Source of the DNA: a virus
Taxonomy: Duplodnaviria > Caudoviricetes
Virus record (IMG/VR): IMGVR_UViG_3300021425_003324
Span: 22,417 to 86,416 of that record
Reading direction: 5' to 3' (one strand)
Length of the DNA: 64,000 bases
This document shows positions 26,629-42,600 of this stretch, piece after piece (position 1 is the stretch's first letter; the number at the start of each line of letters is the position of its first letter). Both the position numbers and the translations under genes were made by a program. Under the pieces are notes generated by a model. The model did not search any database and was not told the DNA's origin. It was given only the letters and a program-made list of their open reading frames with translations.

Positions 26629-26968
26629 AAAAACTGCATGGGGGTATGAACTACATTGGGCAATGCAAAAAACTTACACTGGAAAAATTTTTGTTTTTGA
26701 TAAAATTAGTAATACAGATATGATTTTTCATAAGCATAAAAACAAAAGTTTTTTTGTAAATAGTGGTAAATTTAAAGTTAGATTTGTTGATTTATCAAAC
26801 GGAGATTTTAAAGAAACATCTTTAGACGAAGGCGGAACTATTGATATACCTGCATTCACACCGCATCAAATTTGTTGCACTACAAGCAATGGATCTATCA
26901 ACGAAGTAAGCGATAGTAATAACGAAGAAGATATTTACATATTATTACAAGAAAAATTTATTAAATAA
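26612..26968 (+). CDS. Cupin-fold protein
   Basis: KTAWGYE, FHKHKNKSFFVNSG, IPAFTPHQ, EVS; resembles MPI-type cupins with partly lost ligands. Confidence 0.75.
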   Translation: MTNSVKKTAWGYELHWAMQKTYTGKIFVFDKISNTDMIFHKHKNKSFFVNSGKFKVRFVDLSNGDFKETSLDEGGTIDIPAFTPHQICCTTSNGSINEVSDSNNEEDIYILLQEKFIK

Positions 26969-27234: not shown

Positions 27235-27566
27235 GTTTTCCGAGAGTTAGATGCAGTCATATTTTATTAAGTCATGCAGATGCTATTGAATCTACCCATT
27301 CAAGAGATCTAGCATATGCAGTCATAGATGCAAAACGTATTATCCATGACTTACAAACTGGTGGAATATCATGGGCTACTGCCGTTAAGGAAAATAGTGC
27401 GTGTAATCGAAGTTGGTATAAAGATGGTGATTTAGGTTGGTTTGATTTAACAGATGGCGTATGCGAGGAGCTTTATTTTGCTGTAAATGCAGCGCCAAAA
27501 GACATATTACTAGACGAGCCTATTCAAACACCATATGGTATCCATATTATCGTAAGGACAGGGTAA
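27231..27566 (+). CDS. Parvulin-type peptidyl-prolyl isomerase
   Basis: VRCSHILL, SAC..S...GDLGWF, PIQTPYGIHII. Confidence 0.9.
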   Translation: MSFPRVRCSHILLSHADAIESTHSRDLAYAVIDAKRIIHDLQTGGISWATAVKENSACNRSWYKDGDLGWFDLTDGVCEELYFAVNAAPKDILLDEPIQTPYGIHIIVRTG

Positions 27567-28195
27567 TGTCTTTTGCTGATAACGTTATAAGTGTTCCTTT
27601 TTTTTCTCAAGACGAATGTAAAGAAATAGCAGCTTGGGGTTATCAGTTAGAAAATAGTCTAATAGAGAATAATTTACAAGATTACAATAAAAGTCCTGAT
27701 ATCATTCAAAGTATTACTACTGCAAATTATCAACACTATAACTTTTTCTCTTTTTTTCCTGCTTTTGCTGACAGATTTGCTGATTGCCTAACCCAATTAA
27801 AAATTGAATTAGAATGGCCTATAATTTGTCAAAGTTGGATAAACATCTATAGAAAAAATCAAGGTATTGATTGGCATACCCATCTAGGAAGGATGGGCAG
27901 GAGCTTTTCAGCAAATATATTTATTGCTGGAAAAAATACTCCTACTGTGATTTACAAACCATTTAACACGAAATCTGTAAAAGCAGAAAATATAATAGGT
28001 CAACTTCACATATTTCCATGTGAATTGTTTCATATGGTTCCGAAAAATAAATCAGATACAGATAGAATCACCATTGGAATTACCTGTCATAGTTACATGG
28101 ATATTACACGGGATTCGTTAAATCAATGGGCATTTAATTCTCAAATGTATCAAGATTCTATCATCTTAACCAATAAACATTTTTTACCTAGTTAA
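27566..28195 (+). CDS. 2OG-Fe(II) oxygenase, HxH type (TIGR02466-like)
   Basis: Start reassigned to ATG 27566 (TAATG coupling); WINIY, WHTH, IFPC.LFHMV, RITIG. Confidence 0.8.
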   Translation: MSFADNVISVPFFSQDECKEIAAWGYQLENSLIENNLQDYNKSPDIIQSITTANYQHYNFFSFFPAFADRFADCLTQLKIELEWPIICQSWINIYRKNQGIDWHTHLGRMGRSFSANIFIAGKNTPTVIYKPFNTKSVKAENIIGQLHIFPCELFHMVPKNKSDTDRITIGITCHSYMDITRDSLNQWAFNSQMYQDSIILTNKHFLPS

Positions 28196-28485
28196 TCTTC
28201 AATATCGCCTAATGGTGTAAAATTGGTTAAGACACCGCCATTAATGTTTGGATCGTTTTGCTTAATCTCTTTTTGTGCAATTTCGTTTTCGTCTTGACCT
28301 GCTTCGTATCCTATTTCTACAATTTCACAATTTTTATTAGGATGATTTTCTGCTACCCATTTTTCTGCGTTAGCTCTTGTAACCCATTTTCTAACTTCCT
28401 CATACCCGTCTAAATCTGGATCCCATGTATGCCAAACTTTTACATTTGGATGTTGTGGATGTGGTTTTTTTACTGCGAATGGCAT
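28192..28485 (-). CDS. Hypothetical protein
   Basis: 97 aa, strong SD AAGGAG, end of the minus-strand run. Confidence 0.7.
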   Translation of the reverse strand: MPFAVKKPHPQHPNVKVWHTWDPDLDGYEEVRKWVTRANAEKWVAENHPNKNCEIVEIGYEAGQDENEIAQKEIKQNDPNINGGVLTNFTPLGDIED

Positions 28486-28509
28486 TTTTTTGTTCTCCTT
28501 CTATAAAGA

Positions 28510-29088
28510 TTATTTATCAAAAGTATACCAACCTGTTATTATGTATTTTTCTCCTGTGTAAATAGGATTTCCCCTATGTGGATACATAAAATTAGTTGGA
28601 AATATTAATAATTTTCCTAGTTCTGGTTTAATTTTTTTTCCTTGGTATAAAAATTCAGTCTCTCCGCCTTTGTCTACATCGTTCAAATACAACATATAAT
28701 TTACAACCCTTACACTGCTTCCTATATTTTCAATTTCATTGTGCCACGGATGATATCCTTCATGTGGTAATGTTTTTTGTACACTCATTCCTTTTGCAGA
28801 ATGATCTTGGGCTTGTTTTAGGATAGAATACTTTTCTATGTACTCGTCAAAATAAATTTTATTTAAATTTTCGTAAAAATATCCACACAAATTGTAATCA
28901 TAATGATACATATTTTGGGTATGAGCCCAATCAAAAACAATTCGTTCATCTTGGTTTCGTCGTATGTCATTCAATTTATTTGTAATATTATTTTGCGACA
29001 TTATATTAAAATGTCTAATTATTTCTTCACAATATTCTTGACTATATGCATTTTTATATTCTTCTATTCCGTCATAATTGTCTATCAT
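28510..29088 (-). CDS. 2OG-Fe(II) oxygenase, prolyl-4-hydroxylase-like
   Basis: GYHPWHNE, YLNDVDKGGETEF, IFP...YPHRG, KYIITGW. Confidence 0.9.
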   Translation of the reverse strand: MIDNYDGIEEYKNAYSQEYCEEIIRHFNIMSQNNITNKLNDIRRNQDERIVFDWAHTQNMYHYDYNLCGYFYENLNKIYFDEYIEKYSILKQAQDHSAKGMSVQKTLPHEGYHPWHNEIENIGSSVRVVNYMLYLNDVDKGGETEFLYQGKKIKPELGKLLIFPTNFMYPHRGNPIYTGEKYIITGWYTFDK

Positions 29089-29896
29089 GTATTTCTCTTA
29101 TATATGGTATATACTTTTCTGCTATCAACTCATGCGCACGATAATTGTAGTGTTCATAATCTACTTTTTCTTTTTTTATATTTTTGTATCCGATACTTTC
29201 CAAATAAGTTTCACAATCAAACTTAGCTATGTATGTTTTAGATAGTTTAGTAAAAAAATTTAATGTTTCTTTTGGAATAAAACATTTGTTATTAATATTC
29301 CAAACGTACATAGGCACGTTATTATTGGCGCAAATCATATCGCATACAGCGATATCTTTCATATAATCTTCTTGTTCTAAATGGGTATTTTGATAATGCC
29401 ACATTTGAAAATAAAGATAAGAACTACGTCTAGGATCAGGTTCGGCAATCCAAGGTGCGGTATCTCGTATGTATGGAAACATTGCCCAATCTTCAGGCCC
29501 TGCCTTTATAAAATGTTCCAAATACTTGTTTTTGACACTTAATGAAATACTCCAACGATCAATTAGATCACTGCTTGGATCTTTTTGCAAGAAAAAATCT
29601 ATTGGAAATATTTTTTTGTAATCTAAGTCAGGATTTATCACAACAGGAAATCTACCCCAATATGTGCTCTGTAAAAAAACTTCATCTATATCGTCGTATG
29701 TGTTGAAAGCATGCGCTAGGAACCTAGGGTATGCTCTATTACCTACGCCTGCACTTGCCATAATAACACATTTTTTATTATGTATTTTACTGTAAATTTC
29801 TGCATAATTATTTTTTTGCCATACATTTACAGGTTGATTTAAGTTTGTATTATTATAACCCATTGTATGACTGCAACCAACAAACAGTGTTCTCAT
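29072..29896 (-). CDS. SGNH hydrolase/acyltransferase-like protein
   Basis: FVGCSHTMG at the N-terminus, AGVGN, C-terminal DYEHYN..AH. Confidence 0.6.
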   Translation of the reverse strand: MRTLFVGCSHTMGYNNTNLNQPVNVWQKNNYAEIYSKIHNKKCVIMASAGVGNRAYPRFLAHAFNTYDDIDEVFLQSTYWGRFPVVINPDLDYKKIFPIDFFLQKDPSSDLIDRWSISLSVKNKYLEHFIKAGPEDWAMFPYIRDTAPWIAEPDPRRSSYLYFQMWHYQNTHLEQEDYMKDIAVCDMICANNNVPMYVWNINNKCFIPKETLNFFTKLSKTYIAKFDCETYLESIGYKNIKKEKVDYEHYNYRAHELIAEKYIPYIREIHDRQL

Positions 29897-30441
29897 AAAT
29901 GTTCTATACTAAAATCAATAACTAAAACTTTTCTATTATTTAATGTAGGATAAGCGCCATGCCATACTTTAGAATCCATTACTAATAATAATCCTGGAAA
30001 AGGTGTCCAATACTTAACTTCTATATCTCCTACGTTATTATAACAAAATGCAAAAAAACTTCCTTCATTATTACCTTTTTGTACAGTTTTATCAAAGTAT
30101 AAAACTGTTGTTACTCCAGTTAAACCTTTATTATGATTGTGAATTCCTTTCCAACCATTAACATAATATTCTATACTCCAAGCCATAATAGGATTATTTA
30201 TTAAGTAACTATATTTTTTTATTGTTAAAATATTGTTTACTTCTTTTTTAATAATATTTGTTAATTCTGATATATTAGATAATTCTTGTCCTATTTGATA
30301 TCCATTTACAGTTGTGCTTACACTTGGCGTAACTTTATTTGGTTCATTACTATTAAATAAATTTAAATATTTTTCATAATCAACCCATTTACTTTCTAAA
30401 ATCCAAGAATTATAAAATTCATAAAATATTTTGTTTTCCAT
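29893..30441 (-). CDS. 2OG-Fe(II) oxygenase, HxH type
   Basis: WSIEY, IHNH, TVLYF, VWHGAYP, RKVLV. Confidence 0.75.
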   Translation of the reverse strand: MENKIFYEFYNSWILESKWVDYEKYLNLFNSNEPNKVTPSVSTTVNGYQIGQELSNISELTNIIKKEVNNILTIKKYSYLINNPIMAWSIEYYVNGWKGIHNHNKGLTGVTTVLYFDKTVQKGNNEGSFFAFCYNNVGDIEVKYWTPFPGLLLVMDSKVWHGAYPTLNNRKVLVIDFSIEHL

Positions 30442-31027
30442 TTATTTTTTTTTCTTTGATTGTAAGATTAGCTGATAAAGTAATTCTTGGAACATTTTTA
30501 ACAGGTAGTACATAATGGTTAATCCAACTTGGAAAAACAAGTAGTAAACCTTGTGTTTGATAAGGTGTTATATGATGATATTCCCACCGTTTGAATATCC
30601 TATTTAACCCGCTAGCCTTAATTAAATTAAAATTAGGACATTCGAATACTAATTCGCTTACACCTTCTTTACACTGTAAAAAATATATTAAACTTAGGCT
30701 CCTACCTGGAAAAGTATGATCATGAGGTTCTTGAAATTCATCTTTGTTATAGATATTTGCCCAAAATTCATCACAAATTATTTCAAAATTTGTAATAGGC
30801 TCTAATTGATTTAGAAAATCATGCAATACAGGATTTATAGACTCAAACCATATGTTCCATGGTAGTAAATCATTTTTTTTATTTCTTATAGAAGTCTTGC
30901 TTGTGCCGTAAGACCAACTCGCATCAAAATATGTTTGATCATTGATATAAGGTTTCCATATTTCTAAAATTTCTTCATGATTTTCTATTTGTTTTTCAAA
31001 AAAATAAGATGGAAAAAATGAATGCAT
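30419..31027 (-). CDS. 2OG-Fe(II) oxygenase, HxH type (TIGR02466-like)
   Basis: WANIY, QEPHDH, VFPSWINHYV, RITLSAN. Confidence 0.88.
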   Translation of the reverse strand: MHSFFPSYFFEKQIENHEEILEIWKPYINDQTYFDASWSYGTSKTSIRNKKNDLLPWNIWFESINPVLHDFLNQLEPITNFEIICDEFWANIYNKDEFQEPHDHTFPGRSLSLIYFLQCKEGVSELVFECPNFNLIKASGLNRIFKRWEYHHITPYQTQGLLLVFPSWINHYVLPVKNVPRITLSANLTIKEKKINGKQNIL

Positions 31028-31503
31028 TATTTTACATTAAAAAAGAATACTTGTGTTAATCTACCAGTATTTGCAGAATCGCCAAAACCGGACAAATTAC
31101 TCGAATGCAGTTGATTTGCTTTGTAAAAAATAGCACGGTTAAATTTATTACCTATAGAATCGATTAAATTATTATTCTCAAAGAAATTAGTTCCGCTTTC
31201 AACAGGTGCATTAGGTGTAAGATACAACACACCTGCATAATCGCAGTTATCTGAATGTATCCAACTTTTACTTCCTTCTAGACATAACTGGAAACAAAAA
31301 CTATCCATAACCCATTCTATAATATTAATTCTTAAATTATTTTCTATCTTAAGTTTTATAAACTCTCTATACTGGTAATCAGCTGCTAAACTTCTTTTAC
31401 CCGGAAATGATCCTTCTACAAAAAAATCCAAGTTTAAGGCCTGTTGTCTTACTAGTTCTGGTTTTGGCAAAAAATTATCTATAACAGCAATACTTAATTC
31501 CAT
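31027..31503 (-). CDS. 2OG-Fe(II) oxygenase-like protein (DUF6445-like)
   Basis: VIDNFL..P..VR, FPGKRS, WIHSD, AGVLYL, SGT.F, NKFNR, LHS, RLTQVFF. Confidence 0.8.
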   Translation of the reverse strand: MELSIAVIDNFLPKPELVRQQALNLDFFVEGSFPGKRSLAADYQYREFIKLKIENNLRINIIEWVMDSFCFQLCLEGSKSWIHSDNCDYAGVLYLTPNAPVESGTNFFENNNLIDSIGNKFNRAIFYKANQLHSSNLSGFGDSANTGRLTQVFFFNVK

Positions 31504-32021
31504 TAATTATAATCCATGTAAACATTACCAGATATTGTAGTTCCTTTACCACCAGGTTTTACATAGTGTTCTAAAAAACTTGGAAAAATTATAATTGATC
31601 CTGCCGGCAAATTAGGTCTAAAATCTAATGGAAATTCTAAACAGTTTGTTCCTATATGATTTTGTATATCTTTATAACAGGGATTCATAAAAACTGTATT
31701 AGACACATCTACAGTTTCGTATATTATAAAACTCCAAGCTGCTTTTGGATGAATATGTATATCTTGCCAGTCATTCTCATCATACTTATTCCTCCATATT
31801 TGCCCAAAACTTGGATTCTGTCCTATAAATTTTTCACCTAAATTTTTGACAAAAATTTCTATAAGATATTCAAAAGTTTCATTTGTAATATTGTGTTTTT
31901 CAGTAAAAGTAGTAGGAGTTTCACTTAACCATATCTTTGAAAATTCTTGTTCATCTATTTGAATTTTTTCCAAATCTATTTCGTCTATAAAAATAGGTAT
32001 TGGAAAAATATTATGTACCAT
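31503..32021 (-). CDS. 2OG-Fe(II) oxygenase, HxH type (TIGR02466-like)
   Basis: Start reassigned to in-frame ATG 32021 (MVHNIFPIPIF); QDIHIH, IFPSFLEHYV, TISGN. Confidence 0.85.
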   Translation of the reverse strand: MVHNIFPIPIFIDEIDLEKIQIDEQEFSKIWLSETPTTFTEKHNITNETFEYLIEIFVKNLGEKFIGQNPSFGQIWRNKYDENDWQDIHIHPKAAWSFIIYETVDVSNTVFMNPCYKDIQNHIGTNCLEFPLDFRPNLPAGSIIIFPSFLEHYVKPGGKGTTISGNVYMDYN

Positions 32022-32025
32022 GATA

Positions 32026-32655
32026 TTATTTAGGAGAAGGTAGCGGAATTTTCCGCATGGTTTTGAATACCAGTGTTGCTCGCAAACCTTTATAGTTTTC
32101 ATTTGGTGGTAATCCGTGATGTGGAATATTACCTTTAAATAAAAAAATTCTACCTGGAACTGGTGTGATTTTTTGCCAAGTATTATCTATTTTTATAAGT
32201 GTTTCTCCTCCCCAATGGGTATTCCAATTTTTATTTACATAATATATCCAGCTTATTCCATTATCACATGAACAATCTGTGTGCGGAACAGTGTTGTGTA
32301 TGTATTGTTGCCCATTAATTAATATTTCACCTAACTCTAACTCAAAAGGAATTAAATGTGTAATTGCATTGTAAATCATTTGAAAACAAGAATCATTCGC
32401 AATTGCACTAATTGGAGGATAAATTTGCTGTTTCAAACATGCAACTTCTAGCCACGATTCGTCAGCTCCTATATCATAATTTTTATCTATTGGATAGTTG
32501 CTAGTATGACCATAAAACCAACTGTAAGAATTAAATACTAAATCATGCACATGATTTATAAAATAATTAGGAAATAGATCATCTATAATAATAATTTGAT
32601 CTTGTGATAAATCATAATCATATAAATTTATCATTTCTTGATTGTTAATTATCAT
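32026..32655 (-). CDS. 2OG-Fe(II) oxygenase, prolyl-hydroxylase-like
   Basis: PHTD, YYVN..W...WGGET, PVPGR...F....PHHG, RATLVFK. Confidence 0.88.
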   Translation of the reverse strand: MIINNQEMINLYDYDLSQDQIIIIDDLFPNYFINHVHDLVFNSYSWFYGHTSNYPIDKNYDIGADESWLEVACLKQQIYPPISAIANDSCFQMIYNAITHLIPFELELGEILINGQQYIHNTVPHTDCSCDNGISWIYYVNKNWNTHWGGETLIKIDNTWQKITPVPGRIFLFKGNIPHHGLPPNENYKGLRATLVFKTMRKIPLPSPK

Positions 32656-34435
32656 TTTTTACAGTAATTAATTTTTCATATTCTGGCAAATATAAGTATT
32701 CTATATCACTCTTAGACAATGTAGCTAATGCATCGTCTAAAGTTTCAACTAATGGTTCGCCTGCTAAGTTAAAACTTGTGTTAAATAATATTGGCACTTT
32801 TGTTTCATTATAAAAACATTTTATTAAAGAATAGTAATGAGGATTTTGATCTTCTGTAACAGTTTGTATCCTACAGGTATTATCTACATGTACTATAGAA
32901 GGAATTTGATCTTTTGCATGATCTAAAACATCTACCGCAAACATCATGTGCGGACTTTCTGATAAACTTTTCATATCAAACCAATTAGAGGCGTGTTCTT
33001 TAAGGACTGTTCCAGCAAATGGTCTAAAATATTCTCTTTTTTTGACTTTATTAACAAAATCTTTACCATCTTTAAATCTAGGATCAAAAAGTAAAGATCT
33101 ATTTCCAAGTGCTCTTGGACCGTTTTCACTCCTACCCTGGAAAATAGCAACAATATTTTTTTGTATTAGTAAATTTACAATTTCTAATTCGTTGCAATCA
33201 CTTATTTTTGCACTATATTTTTTTGCAAGTTTTGCAATATTATCTTGTGTATAATTAGTGGGCAACCCGAGATATAAATTGTTACTTACTGTTTTGTTAT
33301 TTGAATTAGTTTTAAGATAATGTATAAAAGCTGCTGCACCAATAGCTGTTCCTGCATCGCTTGATATAGGTTCTACAAACAAAGAAATATCATGTTTTTT
33401 CAACTTATCTAAATAATAATAATTTGCAACACAATTTAATCCATAACCGCCACTTAATACAACATTTTTGTTTCCAGTTAATTCAACTGCATATAGGATT
33501 AATTCTAAAACTTTTTGTTGTGTTTCTTTTTGAACTGCAAATGCTAAATCTTTTCTATTTTGTAACTTTGTTAATTCGTGTAATTCGATATAATTTTCAT
33601 CATATAAAAAAGAGTACGGTTGTGTGTTAATTAAAGCACTGTTAGGATAAGTAGGTATAAATAAATCTTTATTAGCAGTTGGATACAAATCGTTTACAGT
33701 AAAAAAACTAGGAATATTAGGATTTTCAGCTCCATAAGAAGACAAGCCCATTGTTTTTCCAGCTTCAATTGCTTGGAATCCACAATAATTAGTTACTGCT
33801 TCATACATTTTTACTAAGCCGCAAGCAGATTCTATAATGCAAATGTGATTACCTTCTTCTTGGAATTTTGCACTGGACATATCCTCTATATATCGTGTTA
33901 CAAAAGGACCATTTCCGCCTACATGCTTCCATAAAGTTTTAAAATTATTTGGATATTCACATGAAAAGATAGTTTCCAATTCAAATAATAATTCAGACCT
34001 ACCTGTGCCTAAATCAGCTTCTAGGAATGTTCCTGCACCGTCAACTATTACAGCAGTTGCAGATTCAAATCCTGATCTATAGAAAGCACAAGCAGCATGC
34101 AATTTATGATGCATGTTGCTTAAATCTATTACTTGTGGATGCGGTCTACTTTCTGGATAGGTTTCTATTAATCTAAGTTTTCTAGCTAACCCTGTGTACA
34201 CATCATCTCCGGTATAGTCAACCATACCGGCAGTTTCTGAAAGAGGTTGGGTGTGAGCTATTACTAAAAAATCTAAATGATCAGTATAATCTAATATTTT
34301 GGTCATTGCAGCAAAAGGACCGCCGTCGTATTTTTGGCGAGATAATCTTTCTTCTTCAATTGCAAATACAATTTGTCCATTGTGCATTAGACATACACCG
34401 CCGTTATGACCTCTTGTTATTCCTGCTATCCACAT
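32645..34435 (-). CDS. Carbamoyltransferase, CmcH/NodU/TobZ family
   Basis: EEERLSRQK, HHKLHA, VDGAG, AGKTMGLSSYG, SGGYGLNC, DAGTAIGAA, ENGPRALGNRS, KKREYFRPFA, HVDNTCRIQTV, NTSFN. Confidence 0.96.
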   Translation of the reverse strand: MWIAGITRGHNGGVCLMHNGQIVFAIEEERLSRQKYDGGPFAAMTKILDYTDHLDFLVIAHTQPLSETAGMVDYTGDDVYTGLARKLRLIETYPESRPHPQVIDLSNMHHKLHAACAFYRSGFESATAVIVDGAGTFLEADLGTGRSELLFELETIFSCEYPNNFKTLWKHVGGNGPFVTRYIEDMSSAKFQEEGNHICIIESACGLVKMYEAVTNYCGFQAIEAGKTMGLSSYGAENPNIPSFFTVNDLYPTANKDLFIPTYPNSALINTQPYSFLYDENYIELHELTKLQNRKDLAFAVQKETQQKVLELILYAVELTGNKNVVLSGGYGLNCVANYYYLDKLKKHDISLFVEPISSDAGTAIGAAAFIHYLKTNSNNKTVSNNLYLGLPTNYTQDNIAKLAKKYSAKISDCNELEIVNLLIQKNIVAIFQGRSENGPRALGNRSLLFDPRFKDGKDFVNKVKKREYFRPFAGTVLKEHASNWFDMKSLSESPHMMFAVDVLDHAKDQIPSIVHVDNTCRIQTVTEDQNPHYYSLIKCFYNETKVPILFNTSFNLAGEPLVETLDDALATLSKSDIEYLYLPEYEKLITVKNDN

Positions 34436-35440
34436 TTATCTACCTTTAAATGTAAGTTTTGGCAAATCTTTTTTTTGAGTTATTTCTGGTTTTTTTGAAC
34501 TTTTTCCTAGTCTTTTCCTTACACTTGACAAAATATCCTCTATTTGTTTTTTAGATAGCTCCATTGATTCGTCATTAAATCTTTCAATTTCTTCATCGAT
34601 TGAAATTCGAATTGGAGAATATTTGCGTTTATCTTGTCCTACGTCTATAATATCAAAATTTTTGTCGTTTGGATAACTTATGTTAATAGGATACGTAGAT
34701 CCAAGTACAACTGTTGCCGTTTTACCTAATGATTTTACTATATGCTGTCCTAGGCTATCACAGCCTAGGAAGTGATCAGCAATTTCAAGGATAGCTGCCC
34801 AAATTCTAATATCTGGTATTTGAGGTTTTGCAACTGGATATTTTTGTTCTATGTCTTGATTAAAAGAGATAGGAATTTCTGACATTATAATAACAGCATA
34901 TTCTTTCCTAAGTTGATTAATTATATCAACAATATTATCTAATTGAAAACTTCTACTAGTTGAATCTATTATGTAATCTTTTCCTACTGTTTCAACTGAC
35001 CTCCCAAATGGTTGAACGACTAACACTTTATCAAAACCTGTAACTTCTTTCACTTCGTCAATTACACTTGCTGCAGATGTTATTTCCTGCTTGTTAAAAT
35101 AAATTTTAGGTACATGTAAGTCTCGTAGCCCTTTTTTGTTGATTTCTATGTCAAATGCTTGTGCAATATTACATTTTTGGTTGTAATATTCCCAAACTCT
35201 ATATGGCTCTGGGCTCACACAAATGCGATCTTTAATAAAATTTTCAAAAAGTCCTTTGTGCCATACATCGTAAGCTTTGTTGTGTAGGATAGGATGACCT
35301 TTAAAAAAATCAGTGCCAGATTCACAAACTATGATAAAATTGTCTTCAGGATTGTCTTTATAATAATTTTCAAAAGCAGGAATACTTGCTAAGGTCCTTC
35401 CTGCTCCTCCGTTGATAAAAAATGCTGTAGATTTACTCAA
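34436..35440 (-). CDS. Glycosyltransferase, GT9/heptosyltransferase-like GT-B fold
   Basis: INGGAGR..ASIPA, VVQPFG, ADHFLGCDSLGQH.......ATVVLGST; TTG start with GAGG SD. Confidence 0.7.
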   Translation of the reverse strand: MSKSTAFFINGGAGRTLASIPAFENYYKDNPEDNFIIVCESGTDFFKGHPILHNKAYDVWHKGLFENFIKDRICVSPEPYRVWEYYNQKCNIAQAFDIEINKKGLRDLHVPKIYFNKQEITSAASVIDEVKEVTGFDKVLVVQPFGRSVETVGKDYIIDSTSRSFQLDNIVDIINQLRKEYAVIIMSEIPISFNQDIEQKYPVAKPQIPDIRIWAAILEIADHFLGCDSLGQHIVKSLGKTATVVLGSTYPINISYPNDKNFDIIDVGQDKRKYSPIRISIDEEIERFNDESMELSKKQIEDILSSVRKRLGKSSKKPEITQKKDLPKLTFKGR

Positions 35441-35462
35441 ATTACCTCTTATAATTAAAAAT

Positions 35463-35470
35463 TATTTATA
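35463..35470 (-). promoter_or_regulatory. Canonical T4 late promoter TATAAATA heading the enzyme cluster
   Basis: tatttata on +, 22 nt before the GT start. Confidence 0.65.
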
Positions 35471-35493
35471 ATTTTGTAATTTGATAGCAACTA

Positions 35494-36210
35494 TTATAGA
35501 ATTATTGGTCCTTCACCATCCGGTGGTATTTCAGATGCTGGATCAATTGGTTCCATTTTATAAGCAAATTTTACAGGTATACCGGCTGCTTGCATTACAT
35601 TTGGCCAGTCTCTCAATCGCTGACGATAAACTGTAAATTTGTCTTTTAAGCTCTGCGGCATATCATCAGTTACTTCAGCATCACTATTTTTTAATAAACT
35701 TGCTCGTTTAGCTCTAAGATCGTCCCATGTTAGTTCTCTATCAAGCTCAGTTCCAAAGATTGCCCAATCTGTTGATCTTACTTGGAATGTAACATTATCG
35801 TTTTCGTCTACATGCAGAGTCTGTGGATCCCATATATCTCTAGCTACCAATGGAGTTTGATATGTAAAAGTACGGTACCCAGGCACTTCAACCACTCCAG
35901 GAGGTATAACTTCACTTGTATAATCTTCCTCAGCTTCATCAATAACAGGTCCCATTAATTGTCCTATCATTGGATTAGCTATGCAATCTACTTCTACATA
36001 TCTACAATTTAGAGGTAACGGTCTTCCGTCATTTTTCTCTAACTGGGTTAATGGTCCTGCTCCTTGTTTTCCTGTATCATTATCTATTATTAAGAACAAT
36101 TTATCAGGTCCATCATAGGTACATGTTCTTGTTTTACCTTGGCTAAAAGAATGATCAATACAATATTCATTTGGTAATGCTAATTCCCAATCTAGTTCAA
36201 CCATTGCCAT
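35494..36210 (-). CDS. Tail fibre assembly chaperone-like protein
   Basis: C-terminal WDDLRAKRASLLKNSD...YRQRLRDWP, typical of Tfa/tail-assembly chaperones. Confidence 0.75.
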   Translation of the reverse strand: MAMVELDWELALPNEYCIDHSFSQGKTRTCTYDGPDKLFLIIDNDTGKQGAGPLTQLEKNDGRPLPLNCRYVEVDCIANPMIGQLMGPVIDEAEEDYTSEVIPPGVVEVPGYRTFTYQTPLVARDIWDPQTLHVDENDNVTFQVRSTDWAIFGTELDRELTWDDLRAKRASLLKNSDAEVTDDMPQSLKDKFTVYRQRLRDWPNVMQAAGIPVKFAYKMEPIDPASEIPPDGEGPIIL

Positions 36211-36223
36211 AAAATTTTCTCCA

Positions 36224-37036
36224 TTAAAAATATGTTACTTTAACTAAACCGCCACCGCCGGTGCCACCTTGACCACAACAACGGCCACAATAGTTTGAAG
36301 TTGCACTTTGTCCACCAGCTCCATAAGGAACAGTCCAACAACCACATCTTATCCAACAGTAATTTGAATTTTGTTCGTACAATCCATTACTTAAATTCGG
36401 TGCACCTGTGCTATGTCCAATATGTTTCCAGCAATGACAAGTACCGCCAGGATACTGAAAAGCAGCTTGTCCTTGAAAATTACCTTCATGTGTGTACATT
36501 GCCCAATCACCATCTGCACTAGTTCCTACACACCCAGGTCTAATACAATAAGGCATGGTCGAAAAACACCCATCTGTCCAATCTGTATTTGCATATCCTT
36601 GTCCTCCTCCACATGCACACAAATTACTTAAATTATATCCATTTACATAACTTGTACACCCATTACAGGCTGTGCATTCTCTACTAAGACAGCGATAAAC
36701 TCCTGCAGCACAAACTGTGTATGTACAACCTGGAGTTGACCTAATACTCTTGCTCACATATGATCCACCACCAGATGGCTTTGTATGATGACATCTATCA
36801 CAACTACAGGCTCCGTTACCGTTGCCTCCTGCTCCCCACAACTCCCAATTTAATTGACAAACACTGCCTGGAACTGTCCATAGACAACAACAGCCCGGAC
36901 TACACCTATCCGGAGTTCCATAAAACCATTTTGTTGAGTATGTAGATCTAACTCCACTTGATAAGTGTGATGTATCAATAGATTTATCTAAAACTTGATC
37001 ACCATGTAAACGTTTGTAACTCCTGTATGATGCCAT
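36224..37036 (-). CDS. Cys-rich glycine-rich-domain protein 3 (putative fibre tip)
   Basis: 27 Cys in 270 aa by count; CSPGCCCLWTVP, WELWGAGG, CSCDRCHH, CCGQGGTGGGGLVKVTY. Confidence 0.75.
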   Translation of the reverse strand: MASYRSYKRLHGDQVLDKSIDTSHLSSGVRSTYSTKWFYGTPDRCSPGCCCLWTVPGSVCQLNWELWGAGGNGNGACSCDRCHHTKPSGGGSYVSKSIRSTPGCTYTVCAAGVYRCLSRECTACNGCTSYVNGYNLSNLCACGGGQGYANTDWTDGCFSTMPYCIRPGCVGTSADGDWAMYTHEGNFQGQAAFQYPGGTCHCWKHIGHSTGAPNLSNGLYEQNSNYCWIRCGCWTVPYGAGGQSATSNYCGRCCGQGGTGGGGLVKVTYF

Positions 37037-37046
37037 AATATATATC

Positions 37047-37832
37047 CTAAATGTACATTACTTTTACTAATCCACCACCGCCAGTGCCGCCTTGCCCACA
37101 ACAACTACTGCCGCAAAAAGTATTCAAGGCACGCTGACCACCAGTTCCATATGGTACTGCAAAATAACCACATCTAATCCAGCATTGTCTTACTCCTCCA
37201 GAAGAATAACCACCAATTTTTGGAGCTTGGCCTTGATGTATTTCTTGTGGATGACAATGACAATAATCGCTTGCAGTAGACCAGCCTGGTCGGTGTGTAG
37301 CTATGGTCATGTCATTACCATTATGAGTTGGTCCAAAACAATAATTATTTACTCCAAAACATCCAGCATTCCACGCTGTGTTAGCCCTTGCTCTATCACC
37401 GCCGCAAGCACAAAAATTACTAAGGTTGTATCCGTTTACATAAGTTGTGCATCCGTTGTAGTATGCTTCGCATTCTCTACTAAGACAGCGATATACTCCA
37501 GCAGCACATACTGAGTATTGACACCCTTGTACTGTGCTAATTGTTTTTGCAGAGTATGTACCTCCCATTGCAGCCTGGAAATGATGACATCTATTACAAC
37601 TGCATGCACCAGCACCATTACCACCTGCACCCCATAATTCCCACTGTAATCTTTGTACCTGTGTAGGTACAGTCCATAAACAGCAGCAACCTGGAGAACA
37701 AAAACCTAATAAACCATAAAACCATTTTACACCAAATGTGTGTAATGTAGTGTCATTAAATTTATTATCTGCTATAGTTTCATCGTAAAATTGATCACCA
37801 TTTACTTTTTTATAACTTGCATATGTTGCCAT
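37047..37832 (-). CDS. Cys-rich glycine-rich-domain protein 2
   Basis: Full-length paralogue with the same Cys/His motifs. Confidence 0.75.
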   Translation of the reverse strand: MATYASYKKVNGDQFYDETIADNKFNDTTLHTFGVKWFYGLLGFCSPGCCCLWTVPTQVQRLQWELWGAGGNGAGACSCNRCHHFQAAMGGTYSAKTISTVQGCQYSVCAAGVYRCLSRECEAYYNGCTTYVNGYNLSNFCACGGDRARANTAWNAGCFGVNNYCFGPTHNGNDMTIATHRPGWSTASDYCHCHPQEIHQGQAPKIGGYSSGGVRQCWIRCGYFAVPYGTGGQRALNTFCGSSCCGQGGTGGGGLVKVMYI

Positions 37833-37839
37833 AATATCC

Positions 37840-38622
37840 TCATGTAAAAGTAATTTTTACTGCTCCTGGCCCACCTGTTCCGCCTTGACCACAACAACTA
37901 GAACCACAGTATGTTGATTGAGCATTCTGACCTCCATGTCCTGGAGGTGCGATCCAACAACCGCATCTAATCCAACACACTGCAAGGGCGTGTGCAACTG
38001 TACCTCCTAAGAACGGTGCCGGGGTTGGTCTAGTATATTGATGATGGCAATGACAATTAAAAATTCCGCCAAACATACCTACATGATTTCCAAATCCAAA
38101 ATCACCTCCATTATTTCCCGGACTCAAACAACAGCTCCAGCAGCTAAGACAATAATTTGTCCAATCTGTGTTAGCTATTGCATAGTGACCTCCTATAGCA
38201 CAAAAATTACTAAGATTGTAACCGTTTACATAAGTTGTGCATCCGTTAGCAAGTCCTGTACATTCTCTGCTAAGACATCTGTAAACACCGCCTGCGCATA
38301 CAGTGTATTGGCATCCTGGCACTGTGTCTATCATTTTTGTGTTAAAATATCCACCACCGGCTCCGTGATAATGATGACATCTATCACAACTACAGGCACC
38401 AGTTCCGTTTCCACCTGCTCCCCACATTTCCCAGTAAACACGACGGGTACAGCCAGGAACAGTCCATAAACAGCAGCATCCAGGACTGCATCTACAATGA
38501 TTTCCTGTAACCCATTTTACACAATATCTGTGTCTAGCATCAGGTCCTAATTTTTCATTTGTAACAGTTCCGTCTATAAATTGTTCGGTTTTAATTTTTT
38601 TATAGCTCTCGTAAGTTGCCAT
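37840..38622 (-). CDS. Cys-rich glycine-rich-domain protein 1
   Basis: Full-length paralogue; coupled by TAATG to the upstream fibre adaptor. Confidence 0.75.
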   Translation of the reverse strand: MATYESYKKIKTEQFIDGTVTNEKLGPDARHRYCVKWVTGNHCRCSPGCCCLWTVPGCTRRVYWEMWGAGGNGTGACSCDRCHHYHGAGGGYFNTKMIDTVPGCQYTVCAGGVYRCLSRECTGLANGCTTYVNGYNLSNFCAIGGHYAIANTDWTNYCLSCWSCCLSPGNNGGDFGFGNHVGMFGGIFNCHCHHQYTRPTPAPFLGGTVAHALAVCWIRCGCWIAPPGHGGQNAQSTYCGSSCCGQGGTGGPGAVKITFT

Positions 38623-39248
38623 TATACTGTTATAATCCTCCAGCCGTAGGTAGAATTGCTGTAAACAATGTCAAATGCTGCATTTACAGTATCTACTTGC
38701 ATGTCTGCATTGTCTCCCATTATAACTTCTCCGTTCCGCACTAAAACTAAAGGATTTGTATCAAAAGTACCAGCTACATCAAAAAATCTTATAGTGTCTC
38801 CCATTGCAGGACTTAATGGAAGTGTTGCAGCAATAAATCCTGCCGTTGTATTTACAAAATATGCTTGCCAGGATTCTGCAGTAAATCCACCCACTTTAAC
38901 TGAATAAAGATATTTAACGCTTTCCCATCTTAAATTTGTAGAACCATCAGTAACTATTGCTTGCGTGTCTGTACCATCTTGTGGCGGTAAAATATATGTT
39001 GTATCTTGTGCAGTCTCACTTGGTTGGAATGCTGTAAAACCGCCACTAGTTGCATTAAATTTTAATGCCAAATTATCATTAATATTAAATTCCGAGTCTG
39101 TTGACACAGTCCCTGCTGAATCACCTACTACTAATCCAAGTGATGTAAACTCAATTTTAGTTGGAGAATCTGGAACGCTCATTATCCTTTGCGACATATG
39201 AACTAGTGAGTTGTTAATAGGATATTTTCCAACTGTAATTCTTCTCAT
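38622..39248 (-). CDS. Fibre adaptor with T4 gp9/gp10-like C-terminal domain
   Basis: YFVNTT....TLP.SP..GDTIRFFD..GTF.TNPL...RNG..IMG...VYS....GW. Confidence 0.65.
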   Translation of the reverse strand: MRRITVGKYPINNSLVHMSQRIMSVPDSPTKIEFTSLGLVVGDSAGTVSTDSEFNINDNLALKFNATSGGFTAFQPSETAQDTTYILPPQDGTDTQAIVTDGSTNLRWESVKYLYSVKVGGFTAESWQAYFVNTTAGFIAATLPLSPAMGDTIRFFDVAGTFDTNPLVLVRNGEVIMGDNADMQVDTVNAAFDIVYSNSTYGWRIITV

Positions 39249-39260
39249 TAATCTTCCTTT

Positions 39261-39581
39261 TTATAGCGTTGTTGTCTCTATTCCATAAACAAATGCTGTA
39301 ACATTTGCTGCATCTGCTCTAACAATAATTTGTTTGTCTGCATTAACTACAATTCCTGTTCTTTCTATGCTACCTGATGGTAATAATTCTACATTAAATT
39401 CTAAGTATTCAGCAGTCGTAGGACTTGCTGTATCTGAAATTGCAATGTTACAAAACACACTTGCAGATCCTCTGTTACATAAGTTTACAGTTATAACTGA
39501 AAATGTTGTTTCTGGTACAACATACAATGATGTGTCTACACCTGCAGTTAACTCTGCATTTCCTAAAATTCCTGTTGCCAT
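39261..39581 (-). CDS. Small beta-rich virion protein
   Basis: 106 aa; LYVVP..T...VNLCN pattern; resembles 53544-53864. Confidence 0.7.
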   Translation of the reverse strand: MATGILGNAELTAGVDTSLYVVPETTFSVITVNLCNRGSASVFCNIAISDTASPTTAEYLEFNVELLPSGSIERTGIVVNADKQIIVRADAANVTAFVYGIETTTL

Positions 39582-39597
39582 TAATATTTCTCCAATG

Positions 39598-39605
39598 TAT
39601 TTATC
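39598..39605 (-). promoter_or_regulatory. Late-type promoter GATAAATA overlapping a stop codon
   Basis: GATAAATA-catt-GGAG-aaatatta-ATG. Confidence 0.65.
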
Positions 39606-42600
39606 TTAAAAAGTAATTGAGCGCTAATGGTATACCTGTCACACCTCCAAGGAAGTTTGCAGTTGCGTTAAATTGTATACTTGCACCAGTTACTGTTGAA
39701 ATTAAATTTGTACTTATAAATATGTCACCTGCAGTTAACGAGTTAACATTAAGTGAAGCACCACCTCCACCAATTTGAGCTTCGATATAAGCTTTTATTG
39801 CTCTTTGCGTTGGTATCACTGAATCACTATCTGCAGTCATAAACGGATCTGTTGAAAATTCACTTACTGTTGCAGAACTTCCACCGAGAGTAACTTCACC
39901 TAAACTTAATTCTTGTAATCCTGCAATATTAAATGCGTCTGCATTTAGAGTAGCAATACCTGTTGATTGTTCTACATTAAATAGATTACCTACCCTAAAG
40001 TTTCCATCTTGATCAGTGGCAGTAAAAAATACTCTACCGCCAGCAGATTCAACAGTTTCGTATTGTTGATTTGGATCTTGGAAAGGTACTCCTGGATAAT
40101 TTGTACTCGCAAAATTACCAGTTCCTATATCTAAGAAGTCATGTCCTGTTAGACGCACCTGTGAATATCTTATTCTCATATTCAAAGCGGTTTTATCTGG
40201 GGGAGGACTAGTACTAGGCATTCCTGGTGATAAGTTTAAAAATCCAGTATAACCTCCATCATTTGCTCCTAGGAATGTTACAACATTTACTAATTTAAAC
40301 ACATCATTTGGTAAATGATCAAACACTACGTTTGAACCTGCTACTGGCACATCAGACATTCTTCTAACAGCAACAAAAATTCCACTTTGATCAAATTCTG
40401 CATATCCATTTGATTCAGTTGCGCTGATATTTCCACTAGCTGCTTCATACCCTATACCTCTGTTTGTGAATGTTGGATTAGCTAAAACTCCGCTACCTGT
40501 TTTAACGGTATAAGTTACGTCATAGATATTGTTAGGATCTGTTACGGTTAAAGTCGGTACGCTTGTGTACCCACTTCCAGGTTCTACTATTCTTATTGCA
40601 AATATTTTTTCATTTGCAATACTAGGGCGAGCAAATGCTTGCATGCCTAATGTCATCCTAACTACATGAGTTTGTACATCTGATCCTTTTAATATCCACA
40701 CAGGCTCTAAATCTGGATTACCAAAACCTAAAGCATTATATCCATTATTGCCTGCTTGTGCAACAACTGAACGTAATTCCCAATTTGCACAATCTATAGA
40801 AGTTCTAATATTTTCGCCTTGCAAGTTATCTATTACAACAAATTGTCCTTGGGCATATTTTATGTCCTTAGAAACTCCTAAAGTAGAACCATCTGCTGGC
40901 AAATCTACAAGCGTCCAACTTTCTCCTCTATCTAATGAATAAATTAGATCATTTTGATCTTGCGATACAACTGCAAATCTGTTTGCGCCAAATGTAATAG
41001 CACTCCAATTCCTTACAATTGGAGCTAATAATTCATCTGTAAGTAAGACTTTTGTCCATAAACTTGGATTTTGATATTCTGCATATGCAATTGTATTACT
41101 GTCGTCTAAAGCAACTACTAAGCGATTGGCTCCAAACGTAATTCCTACCCAACCGGTCTGATCAGGCAAAGCATTTGCATATTGGGTCCAAGTATTACCT
41201 TCGTCGTCTGAGACTAAAACATCTCTTGATCCTTTAAACATTAAGTAAAACTTGCCTTGACCGTATGTAATGTATGGTTCGCTATCGTAAGCATTTGGTA
41301 ATGCTACAGCACCCCAATTAACATTATCATATGATTGGAATACTTGATTTTGAGATGTGCTCTGAGTTACAATCACAGTTGAACTTACTGCAATATCGCT
41401 AGATCCGTCATATAAAATAGCATTCGCAATTTTTGCTGGTCCTGATTGTCCACTTCCTCCAACAGATAAATTTGTCCATGTTGTACCGTCTGTGCTTTTT
41501 TCTATGCTTGTGCTTGAGTTACCGACTGCGATAAAATCTCCGCTGCAACCAAACCCTTCTTGATCAAATTCTAAAATTGCACCAGTAGTGCTATCACATG
41601 CAGAAGCAATTATTTCTAAATCATTCAGTGGTGTCATTCCGCCTAATTGATCCCCTGGGATAGTTATACTGTCACCTGTTACATAGTTTGCACCACCATT
41701 AGTTACTGCGACTATATACTTACTACCTACCCTGTTAACTGTAAAAGTTGCTCCTGCTCCTATGTCTGAAACAACTAATCCTTGGGTTGGGTTTACATAT
41801 TCTATGCTCGTGTAACACCATGTAATGTCTGTTGTATCCTGCGATGCGCTTAAAGCTGTTGCAGTTGTACTAAACGGAGGTGCTGAAATTGTTATTTTAG
41901 GTTCAATCTGATATACCGAACTTGCATTAGGTGCGGCAATAGGTGTACCTGGATTTAAATGTTCCCAACCAGGTGTTGTTTCATCATTTTTAACCACAGT
42001 TGCAGTTTTGCTTCCCGAATTATATGTATCAATGATAGCATATTGGCCTACACCTGTTCCTCCAGTAATAAAAATTCTCATTTGTTTGCCGGAATATGCT
42101 GTATCAGGATTACCGTCTGTCGCTGCTAGCGTTAAACTTGTTAATGTTCCAGTTTGAGCGGTATTTGAAACAATTAAGTAACCACTACCGCCAAATTGTT
42201 CTTCGTCACCTGTTAAATCAGTAATCTCTACCCTATTGACAGCCCTGTCTCTAAATTCATCTGTATATGTAGATGCATTTATGCCTGCACCAAAAACATT
42301 TATCACAGCTTCTGTATAAGCTTCTCCTGCATGTGAAAATTCTACATTAATTATTTCGTCACCTGTTACGTTGACATTTGAAATGTCAGCGTTAAATTGA
42401 AATCTATTGTCAACTACAGCAGTTACGGGTGTTTCATCAGGGTCTACACCTTCTGCAACAGATCCAAACTTGCCATAACTGTTGTTACCATTAGTAGCTC
42501 TAATTCTGCCACCGTTTTCTGCCAAGTATCCTATGTGTGAATAGTATGTAAACACAGATACAAGCTCTGCCCTACCATTATTTGTTATCCAAGCTCCAAT

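Follow-up and report, generated by a model that had tools for sequence, protein, structure and literature searches.

We analyzed a 64,000-nucleotide (nt) stretch of a viral contig (IMG/VR record IMGVR_UViG_3300021425_003324, positions 22,417 to 86,416; hereafter, the window) and found that a minus-strand gene run within it, extending from position 39581 down to 28192, joins a set of Cys-rich tail fiber proteins and their putative chaperone to a glycosyltransferase of the GT9 fold and an O-carbamoyltransferase. This run is the fiber-proximal end of the published cyanophage 'lipopolysaccharide (LPS) cluster': the genes are already present in published genomes, partly under that name, and comparative genomics suggests that they are linked to the fiber tips. 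The best reading of the arrangement, which we put forward tentatively, is that the fiber tips would be heptosylated and O-carbamoylated in the cytoplasm late in infection.

The window corresponds to the structural region of a T4-like cyanomyovirus, as indicated by PHROG and Pfam scans, and is part of an 86,416-bp IMG/VR viral contig, for which CheckV estimates a completeness of 21%, which would imply a very large genome. The structural genes in the window encode the large terminase, head-closure protein, tail sheath and tail tube proteins, head-tail adaptor (neck) protein, a gp15-like sheath stabilizer, and two giant fibers of 2691 and 1813 amino acids (aa). A megablast search of the 11.4-kb run against the phage collection gave no nucleotide match. 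At the protein level, the nearest cultured relatives are S-SSM7, S-SSM6a and Sf-FS3 (carbamoyltransferase 57% and transferase 59-62% identical), followed by P-SSM2, P-SSM5, S-CAM1 and S-CAM3. The co-oriented, packed run described in the first-pass annotation, which was made from the sequence alone, was recovered in full, with all open reading frames (ORFs) on the minus strand and separated by gaps of 0-53 nt or short overlaps; the family labels (fiber or adaptor, Cys-rich, chaperone, GT9, carbamoyltransferase and oxygenases) likewise hold by Pfam, PHROG and fold scores. The order is giant fiber, two small fiber proteins, three Cys-rich paralogs, chaperone, the motif TATAAATA, GT9-fold transferase, carbamoyltransferase and six 2-oxoglutarate (2OG)-oxygenase-like genes, with a seventh such gene on the opposite strand. 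The central part of the run consists of the following features:

37840..38622, minus strand: predicted Cys-rich fiber tip with a glycine-rich domain, paralog 1, 260 aa, 28 Cys (structural model and Pfam matches of homologs)
37047..37832, minus strand: predicted Cys-rich fiber tip, paralog 2, 261 aa, 23 Cys (PHROG 4205, E 1e-44)
36224..37036, minus strand: predicted Cys-rich fiber tip, paralog 3, 270 aa, 27 Cys (PHROG 4205, E 2e-49)
35494..36210, minus strand: tail fiber assembly chaperone-like protein, 238 aa (Phage_tail_APC, PF16778, Tfa-like, E 1.8e-5, 24.9 bits against a cut-off of 26.6)
35463..35470, minus strand: T4-type late-promoter-like motif TATAAATA, in the 53-nt gap between the chaperone and transferase genes
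34436..35440, minus strand: divergent GT9-fold glycosyltransferase, 334 aa, TTG start, putative heptosyltransferase (fold and Pfam matches of homologs)
32645..34435, minus strand: TobZ/NodU/CmcH-family O-carbamoyltransferase, 596 aa (Carbam_trans_C, E 2e-59; Carbam_trans_N, E 2e-24)

Gene-neighborhood analysis links the Cys-rich family strongly to the transferase and the carbamoyltransferase. Among cultured phages, the Cys-rich family is represented in 17 records and the transferase in 26, and 16 of the 17 are common to both sets; the 17th Cys-rich record is another contig of the same single-cell virus. The genomes of S-SSM7, P-SSM2 and S-CAM3 have the order fiber, small proteins, Cys-rich proteins (8-12% Cys), chaperone-like protein, transferase and carbamoyltransferase, followed by an ADP-heptose kinase/adenylyltransferase, phosphoheptose isomerase, cupin and epimerase. 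In IMG/VR, at least 597 of the 602 pattern matches encode a relative, and synteny was counted on the best 80 of these at least 597 related viral contigs, a sample that is biased to close kin and includes some duplicates. A chaperone homolog is encoded upstream of the transferase in 73 of the 73 loci with at least 900 nt of upstream sequence. The carbamoyltransferase gene is no more than 3 kb downstream in every one of the 69 loci that extend at least 4.5 kb in that direction, and is adjacent in 40 of them. All 69 loci with sufficient room have an ORF of at least 6% Cys whose end adjoins the chaperone; tblastn detected 61 of these ORFs, and the other eight, which have the same C-terminal strand, belong to a divergent type of 287 aa and 13-15% Cys. 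Segments homologous to the giant fiber of 2691 aa lie ahead of the module in related loci. By these counts, the tips, chaperone, transferase and carbamoyltransferase are the conserved core of the module. Both defining families are large: the tip family comprises 530 clusters at 90% identity (of 692 candidates scored), and the transferase family 3410 (of 4773 candidates scored), with 406 representatives at 50% identity and E ≤0.001.

Gene content downstream of the carbamoyltransferase is variable. Among the 57 loci whose flank reaches at least 8 kb, homologs of the 2OG oxygenases were detected in 48, a Trp-halogenase-like gene in 34, genes of the ADP-heptose pathway in 28 (at the place that they occupy also in S-SSM7, P-SSM2 and S-CAM3), and the gene for a 274-aa protein (see below) in 11. 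In some relatives, oxygenase genes separate the chaperone gene from that of the transferase, or the latter from the carbamoyltransferase gene. Thus, of the single tailoring battery initially envisaged, the tips, chaperone, GT9 enzyme and carbamoyltransferase are constant, whereas the part made up of oxygenases and the 'SGNH' protein is variable and not conserved. The Trp-halogenase-like (PrnA-type) gene, which is not found in the window, is usually located just downstream of the carbamoyltransferase and once between chaperone and transferase (for example, L009:13534, L040:14292 and L061:2668). A HAD-type protein with a DxDGV motif, encoded at L031:13353-14051 (minus strand) beside cupin, epimerase and HldE-like genes, is probably a GmhB phosphatase that completes the phage ADP-heptose pathway.

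The linkage between the transferase and Cys-rich proteins is also seen in phage families that are unrelated. In Aeromonas phage HJ05, a myophage with sheath and tube, a 559-aa protein with 23 Cys directly precedes a transferase homolog (E 2e-37 with the family hidden Markov model); this fiber matches Gly_rich_2 below the cut-off (E 0.017) and contains the C-terminal strand of the tip family, and a tblastn search of its Cys-rich domain against phages retrieved only its own record. In the N4-like Vibrio phage SBP1, a transferase homolog directly precedes a 925-aa Phage_Tail_Tip protein with 41 Cys, and about 30 related Vibrio phages encode a transferase homolog. In both HJ05 and SBP1, the transferase is a solitary gene amid tail genes, unaccompanied by other envelope genes. 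A quick tree, the only one on which the clades were defined, contains several further clades of the transferase, and 19 loci were recovered for two of these, using P0151 and P0133 as single queries; no related loci were found with the HJ05 transferase or P0268 as single queries. A carbamoyltransferase is encoded beside the transferase in at least 15 of the 19 loci, Cys-rich neighbors with 6-12% Cys are encoded, for example, in L090, L092, L095, L105 and L106, and a protein with 38% Gly encoded near the transferase in L099 exceeds the Gly_rich_2 cut-off. Oxygenase genes are present in these loci, and HldE-like and epimerase genes in some. L088 and L089 are partial exceptions, with an RCC1-repeat protein upstream and no carbamoyltransferase.

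The three Cys-rich paralogs, of which the second and third are each 55% identical to the first, contain 40-44 Gly in 260-270 residues. Cys accounts for about 10% of their residues, against 0-1.3% in the other structural proteins of the window, and 19 Cys columns are conserved at 90% or more in an alignment of 42 sequences. None of the three matches Gly_rich_2 (PF21722) even at E ≤10, but close homologs exceed the cut-off of 24.3 bits (P0335, 56% identical, 29.6 bits; P0281, 69% identical, 26.2 bits). The AlphaFold model of paralog 1, although its pLDDT is only 77, matched the cyanophage Pam3 fiber (Foldseek E 4e-6; VIA Z 15.3 and 14.3 over 211-220 residues), the tail-tip protein of mycobacteriophage Bxb1 (VIA Z 11.2) and the TG domains of ALK/LTK (VIA Z 7.4-9.6), the next unrelated match being at Z 4.0. 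On the strength of this model, the Cys-rich paralogs are fiber proteins of the glycine-rich (TG, Gly_rich_2) class, with the Pam3 fiber as the nearest solved fold. They share the fold of the Pam3, Bxb1 and ALK/LTK domains and differ from the Pam3 and Bxb1 proteins in the high Cys content, the conserved Cys columns, the occurrence as three tandem paralogs, and the dedicated transferase and carbamoyltransferase genes adjoining them. The conserved columns in the 42 sequences include 4 Pro and 14 Ser/Thr, and the pattern N136-x-(S/T)138 is largely maintained (N in 41 and S/T in 37 of the 42), all of them candidate modification sites only, the last being a possible sequon. Motifs such as CCC, RCHH and CHCH, and three His columns that are conserved, point to metal sites or disulfides in the tips. 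The chaperone-like protein that follows the tips also matches PHROG 4912, 'tail fiber assembly' (E 4.5e-7).

The 334-aa transferase on its own matches no Pfam family at E ≤0.01, including PF01075, and no NCBIfam family, and phmmer against PDB sequences found nothing meaningful (best E 0.18). The family signal is nevertheless clear among homologs, 40 of the 61 aligned sequences matching PF01075 (Glyco_transf_9; best E 1.2e-8). The top PDB matches of the family profile are WaaC and WaaF, on the D-S-x-G-x-H motif, which aligns to WaaC 239-287 (E 0.064) and in which D228, S229 and H233 are invariant or nearly so in the 61 sequences. The structural model (pLDDT 94.8) aligns over 251-282 residues with 3tov, a Veillonella GT9 protein (VIA Z 22.9), WaaF (20.4), TibC (19.6) and WaaC (19.0); members of GT9 are found at Z 18.4-22.9, and the best GT-B protein outside GT9 at 11.7. 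As modeled, the protein is a GT9-fold enzyme of a distinct clade, neither a WaaC/WaaF ortholog nor of the TibC type, with putative catalysis. Chains of the plant NADH dehydrogenase-like complex-photosystem I (NDH-PSI) supercomplex (7wff_a, 7f9o_6 and 9grx_1) match the transferase model at Z 18.8-19.1, like WaaC, so that the GT9 fold can also serve a structural role.

In the carbamoyltransferase, the Kae1-like N-terminal domain scores 87.2 bits (cut-off 24) and the YrdC-like C-terminal domain 200.3 bits (cut-off 27). The solved relatives NovN, GdmN and TobZ (E 1e-41 to 3e-57) are all O-carbamoyltransferases.

The motif TATAAATA sits 22 nt ahead of the TTG start of the transferase gene, in the only sizeable gap of the run. 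The late promoter proposed initially finds support in the conservation of this position: of 65 distinct segments running from chaperone to transferase in relatives, 22 contain exact TATAAATA no more than 80 nt ahead of the transferase start, against a background of 0.064 per kb, and 48 contain NATAAATA, which we take to be the cyanomyovirus late-promoter consensus. Across the whole window, however, TATAAATA is not enriched (8 observed against 13 expected). The published expression study of P-SSM2 covers marker genes only, by reverse-transcription quantitative PCR, and a search for RNA sequencing runs listed none.

Taken together with known systems, these observations can be assembled into a scheme in which the donor and acceptor are those that we infer. 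The three Cys-rich paralogs would be the receptor-binding tips of a distal tail fiber module, each with a TNF-like and a glycine-rich (TG, Gly_rich_2) domain as in the Pam3 fiber. Late in infection, the GT9 enzyme would transfer heptose from ADP-heptose onto the tips, or onto a neighboring fiber protein, in the cytoplasm. The logic would be that of the Escherichia coli adhesins encoded beside a dedicated heptosyltransferase (TibA/TibC and AIDA-I/AAH). The carbamoyltransferase would then, in the proposed order of steps, O-carbamoylate the sugar, the reaction attributed to WapO at O7 of HepII. The downstream genes would provide a variable accessory tailoring set, consisting here of prolyl-hydroxylase-like and other 2OG oxygenases and a protein with SGNH motifs, and in relatives of a halogenase-like gene, the ADP-heptose pathway, a cupin and an epimerase. 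Heptose is the likely donor sugar given the GT9 fold and the presence of the ADP-heptose pathway alongside in half of the relatives. According to a review, cyanobacterial LPS lacks 3-deoxy-D-manno-octulosonate (Kdo) as well as heptose; this lack would explain why phages bring the ADP-heptose pathway along, and with it the host would be without the canonical GT9 acceptor.

Two known systems bracket this scheme. In E. coli, the heptosyltransferase genes of the TibC/TibA and AAH/AIDA-I pairs presumably adjoin the adhesin genes. TibC, which shares the GT9-type fold with the phage enzyme (Z 19.6 over 264-266 residues), uses ADP-heptose as the donor and acts on a protein in the cytoplasm, heptosylating Ser residues of TibA. 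The acceptor there is a beta-helix passenger domain, whereas the phage acceptor would be a glycine- and Cys-rich fiber tip, and, unlike TibC and AAH, the phage transferase is coupled to a carbamoyltransferase. That coupling is found in the LPS core gene cluster of Pseudomonas, which likewise combines enzymes of the GT9 fold (WaaC and WaaF, Z 19-20) with a NodU-family carbamoyltransferase; the role of Cm-(->7) carbamoyltransferase, at O7 of HepII, is assigned there to WapO (PA5005), and the product, 7-O-carbamoyl-heptose, fits the ADP-heptose pathway of the phage relatives. In contrast to the Pseudomonas genes, those of the phage belong to a late virion-gene run rather than an envelope operon, the window transferase itself lacks a PF01075 match, and the host LPS is reported to be devoid of the relevant sugars.

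Several observations weigh against this scheme. The 86-kb contig encodes no heptose-pathway gene, only a cupin, and 29 of the 57 related loci have none in the flank. Residues 10-23 of the transferase contain no Asp or Glu where TibC Asp-110 or the WaaC base would be expected, a position that was placed by the start of the alignment (model residues 1-317 against TibC 92-393, residue 1 falling near TibC residue 92) and not by residue superposition; the family has a nearly invariant G11 G12 x G14 R15 there. In further distinction from TibC and AAH, the N-terminal beta-barrel (TibC 1-97) is absent, so that the phage enzyme begins with the catalytic domain, and so is the four-Cys iron finger: the transferase has only 4 Cys (1.2%), at positions 39, 74, 90 and 227, none of these in a C-terminal insertion. 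Given the missing acidic residue, barrel and iron finger, catalysis by this protein is only putative. Glycine-rich fibers occur without the transferase, Pam3 and Bxb1 not being among the 26 phage records that contain it, and 2OG oxygenases are common in cyanomyoviruses lacking the module, as stated in part of Sullivan et al. (2010). The virion proteomes cited in that work (S-SM1, S-PM2 and Syn9) are those of phages outside the tip and transferase matches. Because the related loci are mostly close kin, with some duplicates, the conserved synteny partly reflects descent. It is comparative genomics that suggests modification of a virion protein, and enzymes that mask the receptor would be just as likely to be linked to the tips. 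The claim that the layout is that of a cluster modifying a structural protein or its glycan thus gains from the linkage to the tips, but no virion protein is shown to be modified, and receptor masking fits equally. A complex prediction for the transferase and tip paralog 1, both supplied as alignments, scored 0.00 and bears on neither side. We nonetheless weigh tip modification highest because the core is constant, the transferase recurs by Cys-rich tail proteins in three phage families, a late-type motif precedes it, and the host LPS acceptor is absent.

The main rival, which we regard as rather unlikely, is that the GT9 enzyme, carbamoyltransferase and heptose pathway put carbamoyl-heptose on an envelope glycan of the host, masking the receptor of the tips and thereby excluding superinfection or keeping progeny from adsorbing to debris. 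Under this model the need for receptor and mask to match would hold the enzyme and tip genes together, and the linkage data fit it as well as they fit tip modification. Host-surface modification is the published reading: the relevant passages of Sullivan et al. (2010) name LPS clusters of unknown functionality, and a 2025 article in BMC Biol proposes modification of the host surface. Furthermore, judging by PDB titles, the characterized GT9 enzymes other than bacterial autotransporter heptosyltransferases act on LPS cores, and WapO carbamoylates LPS heptose. The same contig also contains, at L005:13417-18928, a second glycan-type group with GT25 and GT8 transferases, a class I methyltransferase and several unknown genes, so the phage bears additional 'LPS-type' genes away from the fibers. 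Conversely, cyanobacterial LPS is reported to lack Kdo and heptose, so that the canonical acceptor is absent, and a late-type motif and a location within a virion-gene run suit remodeling of the whole surface before lysis poorly. Pfam and PHROG scans detected no flippase, ligase or membrane protein in the run, and in HJ05 and SBP1 the transferase is found among tail genes without envelope genes.

Alternatively, the run could be a hyperplastic accessory island, in which auxiliary metabolic genes have gathered at a permissive site between the fiber module and the neck genes and might yield a carbamoylated heptose nucleotide, a small metabolite or drawdown of 2OG. The variable content downstream of the carbamoyltransferase agrees with this view, as do the 140 phage records with carbamoyltransferase homologs, most of which lack the transferase. 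Passages of Sullivan et al. (2010) raise both 'stuffer DNA' and 2OG drawdown and report 2OG oxygenases in 14 of 16 cyanomyovirus genomes. We nevertheless consider such an island unlikely: in loci with sufficient flank, the transferase is never apart from the chaperone and tips, it is the better conserved of the two enzymes (identity to S-SSM7 of 62%, against 57% for the carbamoyltransferase), and it turns up again by Cys-rich tail proteins in two further phage families, where such an island is missing.

It is more improbable still that the GT9-like protein is a non-catalytic fiber assembly factor or virion component that has kept only the fold, with the carbamoyltransferase and oxygenases acting elsewhere. 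The absence of an acidic residue at the base position, with G-G-x-G-R in its place, the existence of structural GT9-fold proteins (NDH-PSI, Z 19.1) and the location of the gene directly after the chaperone would all be in keeping with this role; the D228-S229-x-G-x-H233 motif, however, is invariant in 61 diverse homologs and aligns to the WaaC donor site, and the donor pathway is encoded in half of the related loci.

Finally, we give almost no credence to DNA hypermodification by carbamoylation or glycosylation of hydroxymethylated bases: although parts of a 2021 eLife study describe a phage carbamoyltransferase of the same Pfam family that yields 5-carbamoyloxymethylcytosine, the 5-hydroxymethylcytosine carbamoyltransferases in those parts co-occur with thymidylate synthase homologs, MazG-like genes and dCMP deaminase, whereas carbamoyltransferases on unmodified contigs have glycosyltransferases and similar genes as neighbors; the setting here is structural, with a late-type promoter motif, and the 86-kb contig, a genome fragment, has no match to Thymidylat_synt (PF00303), ThyX (PF02511) or Tet_JBP. 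The earlier judgment that DNA modification is the less likely role is thereby borne out, with the qualification that, of the genes then listed as absent, a methyltransferase does occur on the contig outside the window. A second carbamoyltransferase of 507 aa, with both Pfam domains and 29% identity to the fiber-linked one, is encoded at L005:2848-4371, upstream of the window on the contig, with a DnaB-like helicase on one side and a Toprim primase on the other; this replication-module setting makes it the better candidate for a role related to nucleic acids. The same contig encodes a peptide deformylase (Pep_deformylase, E 6e-39; L005:7719-8243), a known cyanophage auxiliary gene.

The remaining features of the run and its borders are:

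39601..47676, minus strand: giant tail fiber protein, 2691 aa, directly upstream of the module (PHROG 9851, 'tail fiber protein', E 6e-179)
39261..39581, minus strand: small fiber-associated protein, 106 aa, at a place kept in relatives (PHROG 11338, 'tail fiber protein', E 2e-11)
38622..39248, minus strand: gp9/gp10-like adaptor, 208 aa (T4_gp9_10_N, E 0.0012, 19.4 bits, under the 25-bit cut-off)
32026..32655, minus strand: 2OG-Fe(II) oxygenase, prolyl-hydroxylase-like, 209 aa (2OG-FeII_Oxy_3, 33 against 27 bits)
31503..32102, minus strand: 2OG-FeII_Oxy_5-type oxygenase, 199 aa as listed (PF13759, 29.1 against 27 bits)
31027..31503, minus strand: DUF6445 oxygenase-like protein, 158 aa, with an HxD...H pattern (PF20043, E 1e-12)
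30419..31027, minus strand: 2OG-FeII_Oxy_5-type oxygenase, 202 aa (PF13759, 38.4 against 27 bits)
29893..30441, minus strand: divergent 2OG-oxygenase-like protein, 182 aa (via homologs; H101, H103, H161 and R170 invariant)
29072..29896, minus strand: protein with SGNH-like motifs, 274 aa, family unproven (motifs)
28510..29088, minus strand: 2OG-Fe(II) oxygenase, prolyl-4-hydroxylase-like, 192 aa (2OG-FeII_Oxy_3, E 6e-13)
28192..28485, minus strand: 97-aa protein, last of the run, with homologs at the same place in relatives (no Pfam, PHROG or NCBIfam match)
27461..28195, plus strand: 2OG-FeII_Oxy_5-type oxygenase, 244 aa (PF13759, 29 against 27 bits)
26612..26968, plus strand: small cupin (PHROG 7851, 'cysteine dioxygenase', E 3e-16; WbuC-family cupin, E 0.006)

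The 208-aa adaptor matched 15 PHROG families, 8 of these in the tail category. The proteins of 209, 199, 202, 192 and 244 aa exceed the Pfam cut-offs for the 2OG-Fe(II) superfamily, with HxH...H or HxD...H visible. The 182-aa protein itself has no Pfam match and is considered oxygenase-like because 8 of its 14 homologs match 2OG-FeII_Oxy_5 and 5 match 2OG-FeII_Oxy_3, in addition to the four invariant residues; in relatives, its gene lies between those of the transferase and carbamoyltransferase. The genes for the 199-aa and 244-aa proteins probably start at internal Met codons given that the ORFs overlap upstream genes. The nearest solved relatives of the 192-aa and 209-aa proteins are protein prolyl hydroxylases (prolyl 4-hydroxylases at E 1e-5 for the former; E 0.0025-0.11 for the latter, with 4iw3 at E 0.0025), and the 209-aa protein also matches the FlmC family of NCBIfam under the cut-off (E 6e-17). 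This protein belongs to PHROG 274, 'DNA endonuclease V', and its homologs in P-SSM2 and S-SSM7 (T4-GC 100) are annotated denV, a label that, considering the 2OG-FeII_Oxy_3 assignment by Pfam and the proximity to FlmC in NCBIfam, looks like a propagated misannotation. Collagen-like G-x-y runs were sought in the large proteins of the window as an oxygenase target, and this candidate was dropped, with a single run of 6 triplets found. A parvulin-type peptidyl-prolyl isomerase (Rotamase, E 9e-9; 27231-27566, plus strand), encoded near the prolyl-hydroxylase-like oxygenases, facing the fiber module and at the same place in relatives, could have a role in fiber folding.

The SGNH-like label of the 274-aa protein comes from motifs. 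In 11 homologs, the invariant residues resemble SGNH blocks I, II, III and V (GCSH, replaced by GDSH in 1 of the 11; G50; N202; and D246-x-x-H249), but the family profile has no match among PDB sequences, only 1 of the 11 matches Lipase_GDSL_2 (E 0.058), and the label remains unproven; an Atlas search with the 274-aa protein retrieved viral hypothetical clusters only, and in one of them 10% of the members carry DUF6071. The small cupin adjoins epimerase, HldE-like and kinase genes in relatives and travels with the heptose genes.

These genes correspond in content and order to the 'LPS gene cluster' of P-SSM2, S-SSM7 and S-SM2 (T4-GCs 302-308; Sullivan et al., 2010), in which the transferase is numbered T4-GC 302, the carbamoyltransferase 303 and the cupin 307. 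In place of the heptose kinase, adenylyltransferase, isomerase and epimerase of that cluster, the window contains an expanded oxygenase set. In the records of P-SSM2, S-SSM7 and S-CAM3, the transferase and tips are annotated as hypothetical proteins, and the passages of Sullivan et al. (2010) on the cluster do not mention a link to fibers. Our search of open-access papers and bioRxiv found no GT9 enzyme or carbamoyltransferase tied to cyanophage fibers and no cyanophage virion glycosylation. Freeman et al. reportedly described, in 2023, glycosylation of mycobacteriophage virions by phage-encoded glycosyltransferases, which is the same concept of phage transferases acting on the phage's own structural proteins, with other transferase families, sugars and targets (capsid and tail tube). 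We know of no carbamoylation and no linkage to fiber tips in mycobacteriophage virion glycosylation.

Since 2005-2010, the cyanophage 'LPS genes' have been regarded, as stated in part of Sullivan et al. (2010), as possibly functional or possibly 'stuffer DNA'. The present analysis shows that part of this set, the GT9-fold transferase and the carbamoyltransferase, is a constant appendage of one Cys-rich class of fiber tips, in an arrangement that spans hundreds of environmental phage contigs and two other phage families. It is conceivable, if somewhat doubtful, that marine myoviruses and some other phages possess a dedicated tip-maturation pathway, comprising prolyl-4-hydroxylase-like hydroxylation, heptosylation by a GT9 enzyme without the catalytic base (on Ser, N-x-S/T or Cys thiols) and O-carbamoylation before assembly, with halogenation or acyl editing in some lineages. 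Such a pathway would explain the long-puzzling 'LPS genes' of large cyanophages and would amount to a widespread virion glycosylation system tuning host range, resistance to proteases or grazing, or stability in seawater. The constant linkage turns a vague annotation into a testable hypothesis for the cultured phages P-SSM2, S-SSM7, S-CAM1 and S-CAM3, namely, that the phage either glycosylates and carbamoylates its own adhesin or masks the matching receptor. If the adhesin is modified, virion glycosylation would be extended to Gram-negative-type phages and to tail fibers, and both outcomes matter for host range and adsorption in the marine phototroph-virus system that is the most abundant.

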